Below are positions 33,738 through 40,583 of a stretch of DNA of 64,000 bases, one piece after another. Source of the DNA: Escherichia phage vB_EcoM_WFK. The translations under genes were made by a program, and so were the position numbers. The stretch lies in the sequence record MK373775.1; one strand, 5' to 3'. Below the pieces are notes generated by a model, which saw nothing but the letters and a program-made list of their open reading frames with translations, did not search any database and was not told the origin of the DNA. The stretch's first letter is position 1. The number at the start of each line of letters is the position of its first letter.

Positions 33738-34148
33738 CTACTTTTTCTTATGTTGGATATTCCAAGGCGGGTTGAACTTTTTGATAAAAAGTGGTTCTTC
33801 AAGGTCCATTGTTGCGATGGTCATTGAACCAAGTTCGTTGGTGACTGAAAGGTCAAAACATTGGCGGGCCCAGAATTCAACCTTTTTGCCTTGCATTAAG
33901 GCATCCAAAATCATAAGTGATTTTCTTGAATCTGAAGTCTGGTCTTTTCGATTTATGGCTGTTCGATAATAGTTAATGCGTTTCTTTAAATTCTTGGTTT
34001 TACCAATATACACGAGTTCGTCATCTATAGCAATAGCATATATGACATTTTTCTTATTAGGGACATCAACTGTTTTAATTGTTGCATCTTCTAATAGCTC
34101 CAATTCTGTATATTTAATAAAGGAATATTCGGCGGCGATATCTTTCAT
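33738..34148 (-). CDS. denA: Endonuclease II (GIY-YIG family)
   Basis: 136 aa; GIY-YIG-type motif VYIGKT...KRINYY; near-identical to T4 DenA. Confidence 0.92.
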   Translation of the reverse strand: MKDIAAEYSFIKYTELELLEDATIKTVDVPNKKNVIYAIAIDDELVYIGKTKNLKKRINYYRTAINRKDQTSDSRKSLMILDALMQGKKVEFWARQCFDLSVTNELGSMTIATMDLEEPLFIKKFNPPWNIQHKKK

Positions 34149-34174: not shown

Positions 34175-34677
34175 TTAGAAATATTTTTTGTATGAATTGA
34201 TTACATTTTGGTCTACATCATTATCAATTTGTGCGACAAGATAAGAACTGATTTCAACTTCCTGAGGAGCTGCTTGAACTAAATCAGAGTTCAGATATTC
34301 ACGAATCCAAGGATACGGATGCTTGGTCGGAGCATCCGTAATTGGACATGGCAAACCACACTGTTTCATACGAGACACAGTCAAGTAATCAACAAAAGCA
34401 CACATACTCTGCGTATTGATACCTGGACATGTACCATCTTTAAAGAGGTGTGCAGCCCATTCCTTCTCTTGACTATTTACTTCCATAAAAATGTCAACTG
34501 CTTCTTGTTCACATTCTTTAGCAATTTGAACCCACTCATCACCGTCAGTACCAGATTGAAGTTGACGGATAATGTACTGAGTACCCTTGAGATGGAGTTG
34601 TTCGTCACGAGCAATGAACTTCATAATCTTTGCATTGCCTTCCATAATTTCCATATTCTTGTGGAAGTTAAAGGTAC
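34175..34677 (-). CDS. nrdB: Ribonucleotide reductase beta subunit NrdB, exon 2
   Basis: Reading frame continues the NrdB sequence (...TFNFHKNMEIMEGNAKI...); 3' splice site inferred after the intron-terminal G. Confidence 0.8.
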
Positions 34678-35768
34678 CGTTATGTTCGATTGAGCTCGCT
34701 AATTCTCAACCCGTTCTCTTATGAACTGCTACATATTACTATGCAGACCAGACTATATCACAATCCCAGAGGGATTCTCCCCATTTCGAGTCGCTTGACC
34801 CTACGTCCGAAGACTAGTCGTTGAACCTTGCTTTGCAATTGTCGCCGTGCCATCGTTTATATGTTGATGGTGATAAATCTTTCTTATCACAATATGGACA
34901 ATTCAATTGAATTCTATTTGGATTTAATTTACATCTGTCATTATGTTTTAGATAAAATCCAGGACCTTTACCAATGTGACCACAAAAATCACACGTGATT
35001 TCTTTTTGTGCAGGATGGGTCCCGTTCTTAACCATTTCTAATGTTTTTGCTGATGTTCTTTTCTTATGGTCTTCTGATAAGAAATGATGTGAACCGTCAT
35101 TTACCCGTTTTGATTGAGTTTCTGACTGCATTTTACCACCGCAAAATACATGAGTACCTTCTTTTATAGCTGCAATATTGCGTTCTTTAACTTTTGCAAT
35201 ATGCTCAGCTTGTTGAAAATTATGTATACCTAATGCAACTCTATTTAAATTAGATTTACGCTGTATTTCACCGTCTAAAAGATGAAATGTACCATTTTCT
35301 ATCTTAGATTTAATAGAGGCAATATTTTTAGCTCGTACTTCAGGGATATTAAAAATCTGGATTTCTCTAGATTTTGCGGCTTTAGAAGCTAATTCAGAAA
35401 TTTCTTCAGGAGAATATTTCATTCTAAGCTTTATAGCATGACAAGCCTGGTAATCTTTTTGAGCTAAATGTATATCATAATGTTCCTGTATAGAAAGGCA
35501 CATCAAATTATCTAAATCATTATTTTCACGGTTACCGTCTTTATGATGGATTTCATATGTTCTTCCATCAGAATCTTTAGGTATAGGTCCGTTAGCATCT
35601 ATCCAAATTTTTCTATAGTTCAATTGTGCATCCTCTTAAAAGTATAATCATATTTATATTATACTAATTAAAGGTGCAAGCAAAACCTTGGCTGCTAGTT
35701 TTCCTATAAAGGACTTTCCAGCAATTAAAGGAGTTTTCGATAAACGTTACCGTTTAAAGGCGCATTTT
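34678..35768 (-). mobile_element. Group I self-splicing intron in nrdB (about 1.09 kb) carrying a homing endonuclease ORF
   Basis: NrdB frame is interrupted by a stop directly after FYVSFA; joining exon 1 (ends in U) to exon 2 restores ...SFACTFNF..., which aligns without gaps to bacterial NrdB; boundaries are approximate. Confidence 0.7.
34814..35623 (-). CDS. Intron-encoded HNH homing endonuclease, I-TevIII-like, full length
   Basis: 269 aa inside the nrdB intron; HNH motif EIHHKDGNRENNDLDNL; C-terminal zinc-finger-like CxxC pairs. Confidence 0.8.
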   Translation of the reverse strand: MNYRKIWIDANGPIPKDSDGRTYEIHHKDGNRENNDLDNLMCLSIQEHYDIHLAQKDYQACHAIKLRMKYSPEEISELASKAAKSREIQIFNIPEVRAKNIASIKSKIENGTFHLLDGEIQRKSNLNRVALGIHNFQQAEHIAKVKERNIAAIKEGTHVFCGGKMQSETQSKRVNDGSHHFLSEDHKKRTSAKTLEMVKNGTHPAQKEITCDFCGHIGKGPGFYLKHNDRCKLNPNRIQLNCPYCDKKDLSPSTYKRWHGDNCKARFND

Positions 35769-36444
35769 ACGCAAAAGATACATAAAAACGAATAGCTTCT
35801 AAGGCATTAATAACGTGCAAACAGAGGTAAAGAGATTTCATTAGCTCACGCTTCCAATATGTCTCATGCTCAATAGCATCTTCAATAACGTCTTCGTCTG
35901 CATTAATTTCTTTTTGGTATTCGATATCGGCTTTAGCGTTTTCCCAATAACGAGTTTTAACCAGAACATCATCGTAATATTTACCTATTGATTCAGCTCG
36001 TTTCATGATTGCTTCGTCTAATACAATCTCATCAAATACCTTAGATGGGTCTGTATAAAGATTTCGCATAATATGAGTGTACGAACGAGAGTGAATAGTT
36101 TCACTGAATGTCCATGTTGCAACCCATGTATCTAATGAAGGGTCGGAAATCAGTGCCATAAGTACCGCAGATGGGGCCCTGCCTTGGATAGAATCTAATA
36201 ATGATTGATACTTAAGATTGTTTGTAAAGATGTCCTGTTGGAACTGAGGAAGCTTATTGAACTGCGCAGAGTCCAACATCAAGTTTACCTCTTCTGGGCG
36301 CCAGAAAAATGACAATTGCTTTTCAATAAGTTCTTCAAAAACTTTATGTCGCTGAATATCATAACGTGCGAGGCCAAGACCAGAACCAAAGAACATTGGT
36401 TCATTCAAAACATCGACTTGTTGTGTGTTAAAAACTGTACTCAT
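35769..36444 (-). CDS. nrdB: Ribonucleotide reductase beta subunit NrdB, exon 1
   Basis: 225 aa of N-terminal NrdB including the diiron/tyrosyl-radical region; 5' splice site inferred after the U following FYVSFA. Confidence 0.8.
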
Positions 36445-36499
36445 TATATTTTCTCACTTAGTTATTAACTCATCCATGAGTAAATTATAATCAAAAGTC

Positions 36500-38764
36500 T
36501 TAAAGCTTACAAGCAGAACAATCTTCAGCTTTAGGTGTTTCTAATTCATAGTCATCTGTACCTGACCCATCACGAGTGTTATGATAGTAGAGGTTTTTTC
36601 CGCCAAAGTACCAGAAGTAAAGCAGATCGTCAAGCATTACCGACATTGGCACTTTACCTTTCTCAAATACTGCAGGGTCATAGTAAGTATTAGCAGAAGC
36701 AGATTGGCACACCCATTTCAACATGATAGCAACTTGGGTCAAATAAGGTTTATTACCTTTCTTAGCAAGTTTCCACGCGTAGTCGTAAAGACTCATGTTA
36801 TGTTCTATATTAGGAACAACCTGTCGGAAGTTGCCTTCTTTAGATTCTTTAATACTTACTGGACCGCGTGGGGGCTCAATCCCGTTTGTAGAGTTCGATA
36901 CTTGACTGCTTGACTCACAAGGCATGAGTGCAGACAACGTTGAGTTACGAATTCCATGTTCTTTGAGTTCAGCTCGAAGTTCTTCCCAATCACATACGTA
37001 GTTCGGGGCTGCGATTTGGTCAATCTTTTTATTGTACCAGTCGATAGGTAATTCGCCTCTAGACCATTTAGTGTCTGAATAATACTCGCAACATCCTTTT
37101 TCTTTGGCGAGTTTGATTGAAGCTTTGATAAGGCCATATTGCAATCTCTCAAACAATTCATGAGTCAAATCGTTAGCGTCTTCATATGAAGCGAAGTTAG
37201 AAGCTAACCATGCAGCATAGTTCGTAACACCAACACCAAGATTACGACGCTTTTTGGCTTTTAAAGCTTCTGGAACCGGATAATCTTGATAGTCTAACAG
37301 GTTATCAAGTGCACGTACTTGTACTTCAGCAAGTTCATTAATTTTATCTTGGTCTTGCCAATCAAATTTATCTAACACGAATGCAGATAACGTGCATAAA
37401 CCAATTTCAGCATCAGGACCATTCACATCATTAGTTGGAATAGCGATTTCACAACATAAGTTACTCTGACGAATTGGAGCTTTTTCACGAATAAACGGAG
37501 TGTAGTTATTCGTGTTATCAACAAACTGTGGATAAATTCGAGCAGTACCAGAGCGTTCAGTCATGAACAATTCAAAGAGTTCTAGTGCTTTGATTCTTTT
37601 CTTTCTGATTGTTGGGTCTTTTTCAGCTTTCTCATAAAGCTCACGGAATTTATCTTGATCTTCAAAGAACGAGTAGTATAGTTCGCCTGACATTTCGTGA
37701 GGGCTAAATAAAGTAATATAATCATTTTTACCAAGGCGTTCCATCATAAGGTCATTAATCTGAATTCCGTAGTCCATATGTCGAATACGGTTTTCATCCA
37801 CGCCTTTGTTATTTTTCAGAACTAATAGGTTCTCTACTTCTAAGTGCCACATCGGATAATACGCTGTAGCAGCACCACCACGAATACCACCTTGAGAACA
37901 AGATTTTACTGCAGTTTGGAAATGTTTCCAGAATGGAATAACACCCGTATGTCGAACTTCACCCATACCGATCTTAGAACCTTCTGCACGAAGCATACCA
38001 ACGTTGATACCAATACCAGCTCGTTTAGAAATATATTCAATAATTGATGCTGAAGTTTTGTTAATAGATTTTAACGAATCACCGGCTTCAATAACTACAC
38101 AACTAGAGAACTGGCGAGTTGGAGTACGAGCACCTGCCATAATTGGGGTTGGCAATGAAACTTGATGAGTAGAAACGGCATTATAAAAACGAATAATATG
38201 TTTCAAACGGTCATGAGTTTCGTCTTGGTGTAAGGCCATGCCAATAGCCATGATAGCAAACTGGGGAGTTTCATAAATCTTCCCAGTTGTTTTATCTTTA
38301 ACTAGATATTTTTCTTTAAGCTGCATAGCACCAGCATAAGTCAGGTCAAAGTCTCGTTCATGTTTAATCTGTGAATCGAGATAAATGATTTCTTCTGCTG
38401 AATATTGAGACAACAGCTCAGGGTCATATTTGCCTTCATTAACACAATAAGAAATATGGTCGATAAAAGCAGGCGGTTCAAACTGCCCATATACATCTTT
38501 ACGAAGTGCAAACATTAGCCCTTTGGCGGCGACATACTGATAATCAGGTTCTTCGACAGAAATCGAGTTAGCTGCAACTTTAATACAAATCTTCTGGATA
38601 TCTTTGGTGCTCATCCCGTCGACAAGATGGGTCTTAATTTCTTCATACAATTCATATGGGTCAATTTGTGTTCCTTCACATTGCCAAGTTAAGACTTGAA
38701 TAATTTTCTGTGCATCAAAATTTTGGGATACACCTGAATTTTTCACTACTTTAAAATTATACAT
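36500..38764 (-). CDS. nrdA: Ribonucleotide reductase alpha subunit NrdA
   Basis: 754 aa, same length as T4 NrdA; class I RNR large subunit with a C-terminal cysteine pair. Confidence 0.97.
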   Translation of the reverse strand: MYNFKVVKNSGVSQNFDAQKIIQVLTWQCEGTQIDPYELYEEIKTHLVDGMSTKDIQKICIKVAANSISVEEPDYQYVAAKGLMFALRKDVYGQFEPPAFIDHISYCVNEGKYDPELLSQYSAEEIIYLDSQIKHERDFDLTYAGAMQLKEKYLVKDKTTGKIYETPQFAIMAIGMALHQDETHDRLKHIIRFYNAVSTHQVSLPTPIMAGARTPTRQFSSCVVIEAGDSLKSINKTSASIIEYISKRAGIGINVGMLRAEGSKIGMGEVRHTGVIPFWKHFQTAVKSCSQGGIRGGAATAYYPMWHLEVENLLVLKNNKGVDENRIRHMDYGIQINDLMMERLGKNDYITLFSPHEMSGELYYSFFEDQDKFRELYEKAEKDPTIRKKRIKALELFELFMTERSGTARIYPQFVDNTNNYTPFIREKAPIRQSNLCCEIAIPTNDVNGPDAEIGLCTLSAFVLDKFDWQDQDKINELAEVQVRALDNLLDYQDYPVPEALKAKKRRNLGVGVTNYAAWLASNFASYEDANDLTHELFERLQYGLIKASIKLAKEKGCCEYYSDTKWSRGELPIDWYNKKIDQIAAPNYVCDWEELRAELKEHGIRNSTLSALMPCESSSQVSNSTNGIEPPRGPVSIKESKEGNFRQVVPNIEHNMSLYDYAWKLAKKGNKPYLTQVAIMLKWVCQSASANTYYDPAVFEKGKVPMSVMLDDLLYFWYFGGKNLYYHNTRDGSGTDDYELETPKAEDCSACKL

Positions 38765-39404
38765 AATAATTCCATGTTGGATAATTTGATGATTTTAGCC
38801 GGCGTCTAACCGTTTGGGTGCTCATAGATAAAACTATTGACGCTTCATTTAATGTATCATATATTACGTCGTTTATAATTACTTTCTTTGCAAATGGATT
38901 CTTGGCTCCTATCATAGCATTAGAAATAGCTTGCTTAGTTGATTCTTTTAATGGGACTCCTTTAGAAATTTTTGTTTTAATTTTTATATTGTATTGTCCG
39001 CGTTTTTTACCTAATAAAGAATTTCGTATCTTTTCTTTAGTCTCTTCAGATTTAACATGTCCTAGTTTGGAACGAGATATTTTATCTTTTGTTTTTTGGT
39101 CTAATTTTCGCCCTTTAAGCAAATCAACCATTTTTGCTCTAGCCCATCCAAATTCTTTATTATTTCTAGAACTCATTAAATTAACCGCGGTTGCTAAACC
39201 TAAATTGTTCGGATATATTTTTAATAAAAGAAGATGAGCCAAATAATGTTCTGAATATGTTAATTTAACTAGATTGTATGACTCATTGGTGCCACCTAAA
39301 CATTTTGGGATTATATGATGCCATTCACCATCTATATCTTCAAAATTTCTTTCTTTATTTACCAAGTTTTTATATATTTTTAAATAATCCATAGTATAAT
39401 CCAC
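38757..39404 (-). CDS. Free-standing HNH homing endonuclease (Mob/I-HmuI-like) with C-terminal NUMOD-like repeats
   Basis: 215 aa; HNH motif EWHHIIPKCLGGTNESYNLV...HYLAH; repeated K-x-K-I-S/R-x-S-L-xGK motifs; 3' end overlaps the nrdA start by 8 nt. Confidence 0.75.
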   Translation of the reverse strand: MDYTMDYLKIYKNLVNKERNFEDIDGEWHHIIPKCLGGTNESYNLVKLTYSEHYLAHLLLLKIYPNNLGLATAVNLMSSRNNKEFGWARAKMVDLLKGRKLDQKTKDKISRSKLGHVKSEETKEKIRNSLLGKKRGQYNIKIKTKISKGVPLKESTKQAISNAMIGAKNPFAKKVIINDVIYDTLNEASIVLSMSTQTVRRRLKSSNYPTWNYYV

Positions 39405-39722: not shown

Positions 39723-40583
39723 TTATACCGCCATTTTAGCTTTGATAGTTGGATGAGATTCATAATTTTTAAGAACGAAATCAGAATGTGTCATAGTTCC
39801 AGTAACCCAGTCCATTTGGATTTTTGTAGGCCAATTCTCAAAATTACTAGGCCAATTAATTTCAAGAGAACATAACTCTTTAGGTTCACGACGAAGAACT
39901 TCTTTGCATTGTTCTATATGATTGCTGTAGATATGCGTGTTGCCGCCTGAGAACACTAAATCACCTGGGATAAGATTACACATCTTAGCCACAATATGCG
40001 TCAAGGCAGCGTACGAGGCAATGTTGAATGGCAATCCCAAGAAAACATCTACACTGCGTTGATACCATTGTAAATCAAGATGCCCATTACGCACATTAAA
40101 TTGATAGAACATATGACAAGGAGGAAGAGCCATTTGGTCAATTTCGGCCGGGTTCCATGCAGAAACTATTTGACGACGATCATTAGGAAGAGCTTTAATA
40201 CGGTCGATAGTTTTGTCCAATTGGTCTACACCACCAAAATCACGCCATTGCTTACCATAAATAGGACCAAGTTCGCCGCTATGATACCCAAGGTCTTTTG
40301 CCTGATTTTCATAGTTGTCGTCCCAAATAGTTTTACCTTGAATAAGACTACCATGAGTACGAATACGCAAATCATTAACATTGGTAGAACCAGACATGAA
40401 CCACAGTAACTCGGCAATACAAGCTTTCCACGCTAATTTCTTAGTTGTTACCGCAGGGAATCCTTTAGTCAGATCCCAACGTAATTTAGTTCCGAACAGG
40501 GCAATTGTTCCTGTGCCTGTACGGTCGTCTGTTTCGTAGCCATTTTCTAGGATATCATTAATCAGGTATTGGTATTGTTTCAT
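39723..40583 (-). CDS. td: Thymidylate synthase, uninterrupted (no td intron)
   Basis: 286 aa continuous ORF, same length as the spliced T4 Td protein. Confidence 0.96.
   Translation of the reverse strand: MKQYQYLINDILENGYETDDRTGTGTIALFGTKLRWDLTKGFPAVTTKKLAWKACIAELLWFMSGSTNVNDLRIRTHGSLIQGKTIWDDNYENQAKDLGYHSGELGPIYGKQWRDFGGVDQLDKTIDRIKALPNDRRQIVSAWNPAEIDQMALPPCHMFYQFNVRNGHLDLQWYQRSVDVFLGLPFNIASYAALTHIVAKMCNLIPGDLVFSGGNTHIYSNHIEQCKEVLRREPKELCSLEINWPSNFENWPTKIQMDWVTGTMTHSDFVLKNYESHPTIKAKMAV

Follow-up and report, generated by a model that had tools for sequence, protein, structure and literature searches.

A probable full-length RB3-type group I intron with its I-TevIII gene in nrdB of a Mosigvirus

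Introduction

In Escherichia phage vB_EcoM_WFK (MK373775.1), the reading frame of nrdB breaks off and is taken up again further downstream, and a reading frame for an HNH endonuclease lies in between. Such an arrangement raises the question whether nrdB is split into two genes, interrupted by an intron that is spliced out, or inactivated, and whether the endonuclease still functions in homing. Over the 64,000 nucleotides analysed (the window), the sequence is 100% identical to that of Escherichia phage vB_EcoM_WFL6982 (Mosigvirus, MK373774.1). Judged from sequence comparison and RNA modelling, the insert, here within nrdB of a Mosigvirus, is almost certainly the T-even nrdB group I intron of the "RB3 type", which is full-length and endonuclease-proficient. 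The intron, the enzyme, its regulation and its mobility have already been published, and the element itself is ordinary, with the full-length nrdB intron being found in about 84 GenBank phage records. The first-pass annotation, made from the sequence alone, was silent on the full-length version being well described and common in sequenced T4-like phages.

The nrdB gene and its splice boundaries

The frame of exon 1 appears as an open reading frame of 225 amino acids (36444..35767) that reads ...AIRFYVSFA and then TAA, and the frame of exon 2 as one running from a methionine at 34654 to 34175. The Pfam family Ribonuc_red_sm is found in two halves, with positions 9–141 in the first frame and 177–271 in the second. 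The first-pass annotation had placed the resumption about 1.09 kb after the break and had joined a U to the GTACC that follows an intron-terminal G. Both points were borne out: the insert measures exactly 1091 nt on the minus strand, and joining U35769 to G34677 gives ...SFA-C-TFNFHKNMEIMEGNAKI... in an NrdB of 392 amino acids, with the terminal nucleotide of the intron (G34678) lying directly 5' of exon 2.

Removal of the 1091 nt in silico leaves a gene of 1179 nt, of which bases 1–1179 match intron-less Mosigvirus nrdB in a single ungapped alignment at 98.0–98.4% identity. Because the spliced gene aligns without gaps to these intron-less alleles, the exon/intron boundaries can be regarded as fixed. 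No stop codon interrupts either exon, and NrdB as encoded here is 100% identical to that of the intron-less phage G53. Aligned with E. coli NrdB (E = 6e-128, residues 3–388), it is unbroken across the junction, but a gap of one residue occurs 8 residues downstream of it. The gapless alignment proposed earlier thus holds for the intron-less phage genes and not for the bacterial protein. NrdB, the beta subunit of class Ia ribonucleotide reductase, is continuous once the insert is removed.

Table 1. Features of the nrdB locus in window coordinates (MFE, minimum free energy fold)
Feature	Coordinates	Strand	Evidence and remarks
nrdB exon 1, 676 nt	36444..35769	minus	codons 1–225 and first base of Cys226
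Upstream co-conversion tract, exon 1	35769..35826	minus	at least -58..-1; outer end between -58 and -76
Group I intron (predicted IA2-type), 1091 nt, terminal G34678	35768..34678	minus	1085/1091 identical to RB3 nrdB intron
P1, exon GCGU (35772..35769) with intron GCGC (35763..35760)	35760..35772	minus	invariant, 6/6; in MFE fold
P2 hairpin	35741..35756	minus	compensatory changes in 3/6 pairs
5' strands of P3 (35733..35728) and P6 (35692..35690)	35690..35733	minus	structure, Rfam homologue alignment
P4	35723..35718 with 35698..35693	minus	structure, Rfam homologue alignment
P5	35713..35710 with 35705..35702	minus	one compensatory pair; Rfam homologue alignment
Putative operator-like homing-site copy TTTTGCTTGCACCTTTAA	35668..35685	minus	local alignment
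Hairpin in P6 loop burying the I-TevIII Shine-Dalgarno AAGAGGA (35637..35631)	35627..35678	minus	predicted fold
Candidate T4-type late promoter box TATAAATA	35651..35658	minus	exact motif match only
I-TevIII gene, 269 aa, TTG start	35623..34814	minus	268/269 identical to RB3 I-TevIII
3' core	34751..34837	minus	Rfam match, pair counts
P6a' and P6' (3' core)	34837..34828 and 34827..34825	minus	Rfam match, pair counts
P7	34819..34815 with 34755..34751	minus	Rfam match, pair counts
P7.1, UUCG loop	34814..34805	minus	Rfam match, pair counts
P7.2	34801..34788	minus	one compensatory pair
P3' and P8	34782..34777 and 34775..34763	minus	Rfam match, pair counts
P9	34746..34729	minus	peripheral (34688..34746); one compensatory pair; MFE fold
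P9.1	34726..34713	minus	peripheral; MFE fold
P9.2	34711..34688	minus	peripheral; two compensatory pairs; MFE fold
nrdB exon 2, 503 nt including stop codon	34677..34175	minus	Pfam Ribonuc_red_sm positions 177–271
Downstream co-conversion tract, exon 2	34658..34677	minus	+1..+20; ends before +23
Terminator-like intrinsic hairpin 3' of the nrdB stop codon	34157..34170	minus	hairpin scan; terminator annotation in MK373774.1

Structure of the intron RNA

A region-limited search with the Rfam family RF00028 (gathering score 50 bits) identified the 3' core of the insert as a partial match at 34729..34969 with 34 bits and E = 1.4e-6, corresponding to E = 6.3e-5 across the whole window. At the gathering threshold, Rfam gave no match over the whole window, and the whole-window search by E-value returned this one group I signal only and no further introns. 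The score below the gathering value is likely due to the 785-nt loop in P6 that holds the open reading frame and breaks the Rfam model. Copies of the nrdB intron without the reading frame reach 68.6 bits in PD112, 74.1 bits in DCP80 and 57.9 bits in a third copy, and the PD112 intron is 99.4% identical to that of the window over the shared parts. The Rfam alignment of such an ORF-less homologue assigns P3, P4, P5, P6, P7, P8 and P9.

In the hand-drawn structure from P1 to P9.2, 98.3% of the 88 pairs were formed and nine were compensatory, compared with none in shifted control structures, the sample for covariation consisting of six closely related sequences only. Every helix of the core from P3 to P8, including the P3/P7 pseudoknot, is present and 100% paired in the six homologues. 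An independent minimum free energy fold (z = -2.4) recovered all helices except the P7 pseudoknot. At the 5' splice site, U35769 and G35763 form the U.G wobble, which is unchanged among the homologues. These findings support the group I intron that the first-pass annotation had proposed.

Extra helices between P7 and P3', named P7.1 and P7.2, are typical of subgroup IA, a trait reportedly set out by Michel and Westhof in 1990. Both are present here, in line with a putative IA2-type subgroup.

The intron-encoded endonuclease

The I-TevIII reading frame is located in the P6 loop, flanked by the two strands of P6a, and its last approximately 10 codons and the stop codon overlap P6a', P6', J6/7 and P7. 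It matched Pfam HNH_3 with 48.7 bits (cut-off 24.8) and phrog_12324 at positions 1–269 of 269 (E = 1.9e-193). In the N-terminal HNH domain, H26, H27, N39 and H48 are all present, and an alanine at any of these positions abolishes cleavage by I-TevIII (PMC1865063). The pairs of CxxC noted earlier at the C-terminus do exist as cysteine clusters but are described more exactly as two zinc fingers, which read C211-x2-C214-x12-H227-x3-C231 and C242-x2-C245-x13-H259-x3-C263 in the translation. This motif, CX2CX12-13HX3C, belongs to the C-terminal DNA-binding and dimerisation domain of I-TevIII (PMC1865063). With all 269 codons open and every published catalytic and zinc-finger residue kept (compared with PMC1865063), the view that an HNH protein of this size represents a full-length I-TevIII was upheld. 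In one other record, the reading frame is annotated in a shorter form that starts at Met41.

Expression signals within the intron

The hairpin predicted to cover the ribosome-binding site of I-TevIII in the full-length pre-mRNA folds with -14.9 kcal/mol (z = -3.2) and contains one compensatory pair, with A-U replaced by G-C in SG1. The inner hairpin folded alone was insignificant (-4.4 kcal/mol, z = -0.75), and the longer form including the arm that covers the ribosome-binding site is the relevant one. RNA beginning downstream of the late promoter has practically no structure (-0.7 kcal/mol). The promoter box lies in the loop of the hairpin and precedes the TTG start codon by 27 nt. An arrangement with a hairpin sequestering the ribosome-binding site has been published for I-TevIII, and late or middle promoters of T4 intron reading frames were mapped experimentally (PMC2988022). 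A scan of the region for sigma-70 promoters yielded 8 hits, compared with 9.9 expected from shuffled sequence, and was left unused.

The repeat TTTTGCTTGCACCTTTAA is identical in 16 of 18 positions to the exon junction TTTTGCG|TGTACCTTTAA, a score that was equalled in 4 of 2000 shuffles. It may represent an operator for I-TevIII, as a putative autorepression operator has been proposed (PMC2988022).

Following the published work on T4 and RB3, the nrdB pre-mRNA would self-splice with guanosine, join U35769 to G34677 and give an mRNA for the 392-amino acid NrdB. The ribosome-binding site of I-TevIII would be buried in the hairpin in early transcripts, whereas late transcripts beginning at TATAAATA inside the hairpin would leave it free, and the enzyme would then be made late in infection. 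This HNH enzyme with its two zinc fingers is expected to act as a dimer, and double-strand-break repair off the intron-bearing allele would copy the intron, along with exon sequence close to it, into an intron-less phage infecting the same cell.

Co-conversion tract and past homing

Upstream of the intron, 12 clustered synonymous differences separate exon 1 from the intron-less Mosigvirus phages G53 and NicPhage, and all of them correspond to RB3 and T4. Downstream, position +20 is as in RB3 and T4 and unlike G53, whereas from +23 on the sequence is as in G53 and unlike RB3. All changes between -58 and +20 are synonymous, with alleles as in intron-bearing Tequatrovirus, and outside this tract nrdB is near-identical to intron-less Mosigvirus nrdB. 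The tract looks fresh and has the cleavage and insertion site at its centre (cleavage positions taken from PMC1865063), which shows that the intron arrived in this lineage by homing. As the ends of the tract vary among intron-bearing phages, repeated homing events are indicated. The Tequatrovirus-type synonymous tract of 78–97 nt in exons of Mosigvirus type is a clean natural footprint of cross-genus homing.

Relation to other introns of T-even phages

The full-length version of the intron was reportedly described in RB3 (Eddy and Gold 1991, Genes Dev 5:1032). The RB3 intron shares the insertion site and the length of 1091 nt with that of the window, and 99.5% of positions are identical; the six differences include one non-synonymous change (D23Y). 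I-TevIII has the same length and intron-relative coordinates in both, and the late-promoter box, the hairpin over the ribosome-binding site and the operator-like repeat are the same. The host gene of RB3 is of Tequatrovirus and that of the window of Mosigvirus, and the exons are only 79% (536/676) and 80% (400/503) identical, with about 79–80% outside the co-conversion tract. Unlike RB3, the window has no mobE between nrdA and nrdB. That the RB3 intron homes was shown by Robbins et al. in 2007 (PMC1865063).

The nrdB intron of T4 (598 nt), in which I-TevIII is defective, has the same insertion site and RNA core and is approximately 98% identical over the shared parts, but lacks 491 nt encoding the HNH domain and has two further deletions of 1 nt. 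The C-terminal 97 amino acids of the window reading frame match the I-TevIII remnant of T4 (phrog_27406), and the truncation in T4 stated in the first-pass annotation was confirmed. On its own, the T4 intron is non-mobile, and it is mobilised in trans by MobE (PMC2790892). In vB_vPM_PD112 and DCP80, core and insertion site are as in the window, but the entire reading frame is absent, excised exactly between two ACAATTG repeats, which leaves introns of about 304–309 nt that pass RF00028, in contrast to the ORF-bearing copy.

The introns in td (I-TevI) and nrdD (I-TevII) of T4 are of the same structural group I type and also reside in genes of nucleotide metabolism. Their endonucleases are likewise controlled by a late or middle promoter and a hairpin at the ribosome-binding site (PMC2988022), but are GIY-YIG enzymes, whereas I-TevIII of the window is an HNH enzyme. 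The td intron is absent from the window: td (40583..39723) is an uninterrupted reading frame of 286 amino acids with the thymidylate synthase profile covered from 1 to 266 of 266, as had been stated earlier.

Alternative explanations and annotation

In Aeromonas phage Aeh1, nrdA is split by mobE, and nrdB could by analogy be truly split here, with two fragments translated separately around a free-standing HNH endonuclease gene and no splicing. An in-frame ATG is available to the second fragment at 34654, and the GenBank record of the phage, like those of many relatives, lists nrdB as two separate genes, with I-TevIII given as a hypothetical protein (in relatives as a separate endonuclease or hypothetical protein). 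However, the insert breaks the codon of Cys226 after its first base (U|GU), a restart at Met234 would drop eight conserved residues (CTFNFHKN), the insert has the whole group I core, with covarying pairs, and in the parts common to both it shows 98% identity to the intron of T4, which is described as self-splicing (PMC2790892). The split gene was rejected on the grounds of the broken codon, the group I core and the likeness to T4, and hardly any credence is left for it. It is just as improbable that the intron is defective in splicing, with nrdB a pseudogene and the phage dependent on the ribonucleotide reductase of its host. Such a defect might be suspected from an insertion of 1 nt relative to T4, located 3 nt before the terminal G; yet the same AACG 3' end is shared with the mobile intron of RB3 and with many further phages, no core pair is broken, and the two open exons encode the very protein of an intron-less relative. 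With nrdB read as a spliced gene, the significance of the locus lies mostly in its correct annotation: the minus-strand gene should be given as join(36444..35769, 34677..34175) and I-TevIII as encoded within the intron, and many related records are likewise wrong.

The intron might also splice while I-TevIII is inactive for homing, owing to D23Y or to poor expression from TTG, and persist as a passenger or with an autorepressing or otherwise non-cleaving protein. Residue 23, the sole difference from RB3 I-TevIII, lies three residues before the catalytic H26/H27 and departs from the only enzyme tested. Homing of RB3 is itself modest, at 4.3% per recipient (PMC1865063), and decay of the reading frame is common, with T4-type truncations and ORF-less copies making up 44 of 128 intron-bearing records (about one third). 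These points are set against a survey that combined megablast searches, run with queries of 63 nt, with translations made directly from fetched loci, and in which Tyr23 was found in all seven other phages translated from outside the RB3 group. They represent four named genera and include S16, whose nrdB intron is only 89% identical. Asp23 was limited to the near-identical isolates RB3/5/6/7/9/10. With Tyr as the common state, D23Y was rejected as an unlikely inactivating change. Together with the open frame, the preserved mutationally defined residues and the fresh-looking tract at the cleavage site, which shows homing to be the route into this lineage, this makes an inactive I-TevIII very unlikely. 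Exact-pattern scans of IMG/VR for codons 18–28 in the Tyr23 and Asp23 versions gave zero matches and are uninformative on the frequency of the variants.

The only biochemically characterised I-TevIII carries Asp23. On the reading of an active, homing-proficient enzyme, the natural consensus form with Tyr23 may even exceed the Asp23 variant of the RB3 group in activity, although this is a speculative and rather unlikely idea. If it were the case, it could explain the large amounts of protein that RB3 I-TevIII needed for cleavage as well as the modest homing, and the Tyr23 form would be the driver of the repeated spread between genera to which the co-conversion tracts attest.

Identity and distribution of the nrdB element

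The nrdB interruption is an RB3-type intron carrying I-TevIII, an element described before. The first-pass annotation, which had read it as a group I intron with an intact I-TevIII-like endonuclease and compared it to T4, was correct in both observation and interpretation. The element is not new, since the RB3 type is known and this very sequence is in a public record: the queried 2.4 kb are 100% identical to those of Escherichia phage vB_EcoM_WFL6982 (MK373774.1, Straboviridae, Mosigvirus). Of the 128 phage records in which the intron was found, 84 reach 80% coverage or more of the 1091-nt query, and all full-coverage copies that were retrieved or seen annotated carry the ORF. The other 44 include introns with the T4-type deletion (56% coverage) or with other partial deletions, copies of about 300 nt that lack the ORF, and a single short match in an unrelated phage. 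Full-length copies are spread over Tequatrovirus, Mosigvirus, Dhakavirus and Gelderlandvirus, plus one Klebsiella phage; a similar nrdB is present in about 670 records, mostly without intron. Several records already label the intron ORF I-TevIII or 'intron-like DNA endonuclease'. The MK373774.1 record splits nrdB into two independent CDSs and calls I-TevIII a 'hypothetical protein'; this record needs correcting, as do the many related ones that are annotated likewise. In the WilhelmHis record, the endonuclease ORF was begun at Met41, by which half of the HNH motif is lost.

Features of the nrdB region (window positions)
Feature	Position	Strand	Remark
td	40583..39723	minus	first in local gene order
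DUF5496 ORF		minus	between td and free-standing HNH ORF
Free-standing HNH ORF	39404..38757	minus	215 aa, homing-endonuclease-like
nrdA	38764..36500	minus	
nrdA-nrdB spacer	36445..36499		55 nt
nrdB	36444..34175	minus	
nrdB exon 1	36444..35769	minus	
nrdB intron	35768..34678	minus	1091 nt
Homing-site repeat	35685..35668		
RBS hairpin	35678..35627		
Late-promoter box	35658..35651	minus	
ACAATTG repeats	35627..35621, 34841..34835		
I-TevIII ORF	35623..34814	minus	TTG start, 269 aa
RF00028 match	34729..34969	minus	
nrdB exon 2	34677..34175	minus	
denA	34148..33738	minus	
rnlA		minus	after denA

Exons and intron boundaries

As had been noticed from the reading frame, nrdB runs into a TAA stop immediately after ...AIRFYVSFA and picks up again downstream; Pfam Ribonuc_red_sm covers the piece before the stop with its N-terminal half (profile positions 9-141) and the later piece with its C-terminal half (177-271). 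Excision of the intron joins U35769 to G34677, so that UGU (Cys226) is complete again and the frame encodes 392 amino acids. The nrdB gene spliced in silico (1179 nt) aligned to intron-less Mosigvirus nrdB in a single ungapped stretch from base 1 to 1179, with 98.0-98.4% identity to NicPhage, G53, AV110 and other intron-less alleles of this genus, and the spliced protein is identical to G53 NrdB. E. coli NrdB was matched over residues 3-388 (E = 6e-128); the gapless alignment to bacterial NrdB that had been claimed is continuous over the junction but has a one-residue gap 8 residues downstream. Because intron-less alleles, the G53 protein and E. coli NrdB support them, the boundaries are independent of any splicing model.

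Group I structure

An Rfam search of the window at the gathering threshold gave no match. With E-value thresholds, nothing but RF00028 came up across all 64 kb; it scored 34 bits (gathering score 50 bits), with E = 1.4e-6 in the search of the region and 6.3e-5 in that of the window, and the match takes in P6'/J6/7/P7/P3'/P8/P7'/P9. The low score is probably due to a loop of about 785 nt that carries the ORF and lies inside P6. The same intron without ORF in PD112 (304 nt, 99.4% identity over shared parts) scored 68.6 bits, the ORF-less intron of DCP80 74.1 bits and the partially deleted intron of SG1 57.9 bits, all three over the gathering score.

ORF-deleted cores of six introns (window, PD112, DCP80, SG1, S16 and T4) were aligned and helices drawn by hand: P1, P2, P3, P4, P5, P6, P6a, an ORF-loop hairpin, P7 (pseudoknot with P3), P7.1, P7.2, P8, P9, P9.1 and P9.2. 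Standard pairs occupy 98.3% of cells. Both-sided changes were found in nine pairs, in P2 (three), P5, the ORF-loop hairpin, P7.2, P9 and P9.2 (two), in a sample that is small and closely related; control structures with one strand slid by 1-3 columns had none in every case, with pairing of 38-44%. An independent minimum free energy fold of the ORF-deleted RNA (-82.8 kcal/mol, z = -2.4) recovered all helices except the pseudoknotted P7. The 5' splice site is a U.G wobble in P1 (U35769 with G35763), and the last intron nucleotide is G34678. Despite the small sample, the proposed group I intron with a P1-P9.2 fold is a safe conclusion because of the slid controls and the Rfam matches, and the intron presumably splices in this phage.

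The last 89 nt at the 3' end of the intron (P9.1/P9.2 region) have an 86.5% match in the unrelated marine Pseudoalteromonas phage pYD6-A (NC_020849.1, 16993-17079), within what is annotated as an 'ATPase' gene; a further group I intron whose 3' domain is related to this one may lie there.

The I-TevIII endonuclease

The intron ORF is identical to RB3 I-TevIII at 268 of 269 residues and matches the full-length PHROG over 1-269 (E = 1.9e-193); the family of the 97-aa T4 remnant matches residues 173-269, and Pfam HNH_3 residues 4-48. RB3 I-TevIII is a 30.8-kDa protein that works as a dimer (Robbins et al. 2007, PMC1865063). Its cleavage is abolished by each of H26A, H27A, N39A and H48A; DNA binding requires two CX2CX12-13HX3C zinc fingers, which include C211/C214 and C242/C245; and it homes at 4.3% per recipient, more than 40-fold over a T4 intron donor (PMC1865063). 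Every residue so defined and both finger spacings are kept in the window, no sign of decay was seen in its I-TevIII, and the intact HNH ORF that had been proposed would be expected to cleave. The sole difference to RB3 is D23Y. WilhelmHis, HY03, FL31, AV111, Bp7 and the diverged S16 have Tyr23 (TAC or TAT), and Asp (GAC) is in the RB3 sequence only; a 63-nt search recovered the exact RB3 version only from the near-identical RB3/5/6/7/9/10 isolates, most other records being one base off. The enzyme in the window is thus of the common form.

The T4 intron is the same but shorter (598 nt), through a 491-nt internal deletion and two of 1 nt. The large deletion takes out the N-terminal part of the ORF, and the T4 record lists a defective I-TevIII, in line with the truncation in T4 and intactness here that had been pointed out. 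In PD112 and DCP80, the ORF is exactly deleted between two ACAATTG direct repeats, of which one lies over the TTG start and the other about 20 nt before the stop. Such bounds suggest that the ORF was lost via short-repeat recombination or, conversely, that it first invaded the intron here.

By motif match, the loop of a hairpin (-14.9 kcal/mol, z = -3.2, one compensatory pair) was found to hold TATAAATA, a T4 late-promoter box; the Shine-Dalgarno AAGAGGA of I-TevIII lies in the 3' arm of this hairpin, and RNA starting right downstream of the box is near-unstructured (-0.7 kcal/mol). Translation of T4's three intron endonucleases is blocked on early read-through transcripts and permitted on late ones (PMC2988022), a scheme that box and hairpin appear to match. 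A short way upstream of the box lies a repeat of the homing site that spans the exon junction, with 16 of 18 positions the same (score equalled in only 4/2000 shuffles), and this repeat may correspond to the putative autorepression operator proposed in that review (PMC2988022). The final ORF codons and stop overlap P6a', P6', J6/7 and the P7 5' strand.

Probable footprint of homing

The RB3 and window introns are identical at 1085 of 1091 positions, whereas their exons share only 79% (536/676) and 80% (400/503). Outside a short tract, the window exons are virtually identical to intron-less G53 and NicPhage (most 50-nt bins 100%); versus RB3, the same bins show 48% to 88%. Fourteen of the 20 differences to G53 nrdB cluster from -58 to +20 around the insertion site; all 14 are synonymous, and 13 carry the RB3/T4 base. 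The tract, with its upstream end between -58 and -76 and its downstream end between +20 and +23, spans the published I-TevIII cleavage positions and offers a clean case of co-conversion in nature. Upstream conversion reaches only about -30 in WilhelmHis and HY03, downstream conversion extends to at least +47 in AV111, and FL31 is RB3-like past -110. Such differing ends would be the expected trace of repeated, independent homing with exon co-conversion, agree with the homing mechanism reviewed in PMC2988022, and provide good though indirect evidence that the full-length element has been mobile in nature, including between genera. Within the tract, 34661 (exon 2 +17) is a synonymous C, common to Salmonella phage S16, versus T in G53, NicPhage, RB3 and T4; it may be either a private mutation or a sign of a donor that was not RB3-like there.

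Neighbouring genes

The td intron is absent from the window, unlike T4, as had been stated. T4 and RB3 carry mobE between nrdA and nrdB, whereas neither mobE nor nrdB.1 was found in the nrdA-nrdB spacer of the window; the MobE-driven trans-homing route of T4 therefore cannot run from this genome. The free-standing HNH ORF overlaps the nrdA start by 8 nt and has the DUF5496 ORF on its td side. Over its N-terminal 77 aa it shares 47% identity with RB3 MobE, NUMOD3 and a DNA-binding domain of the I-TevI type lie at its C-terminus, and it matches phrog_655 'homing endonuclease'. The equivalent position in T4 is occupied by nrdA.1 and nrdA.2.
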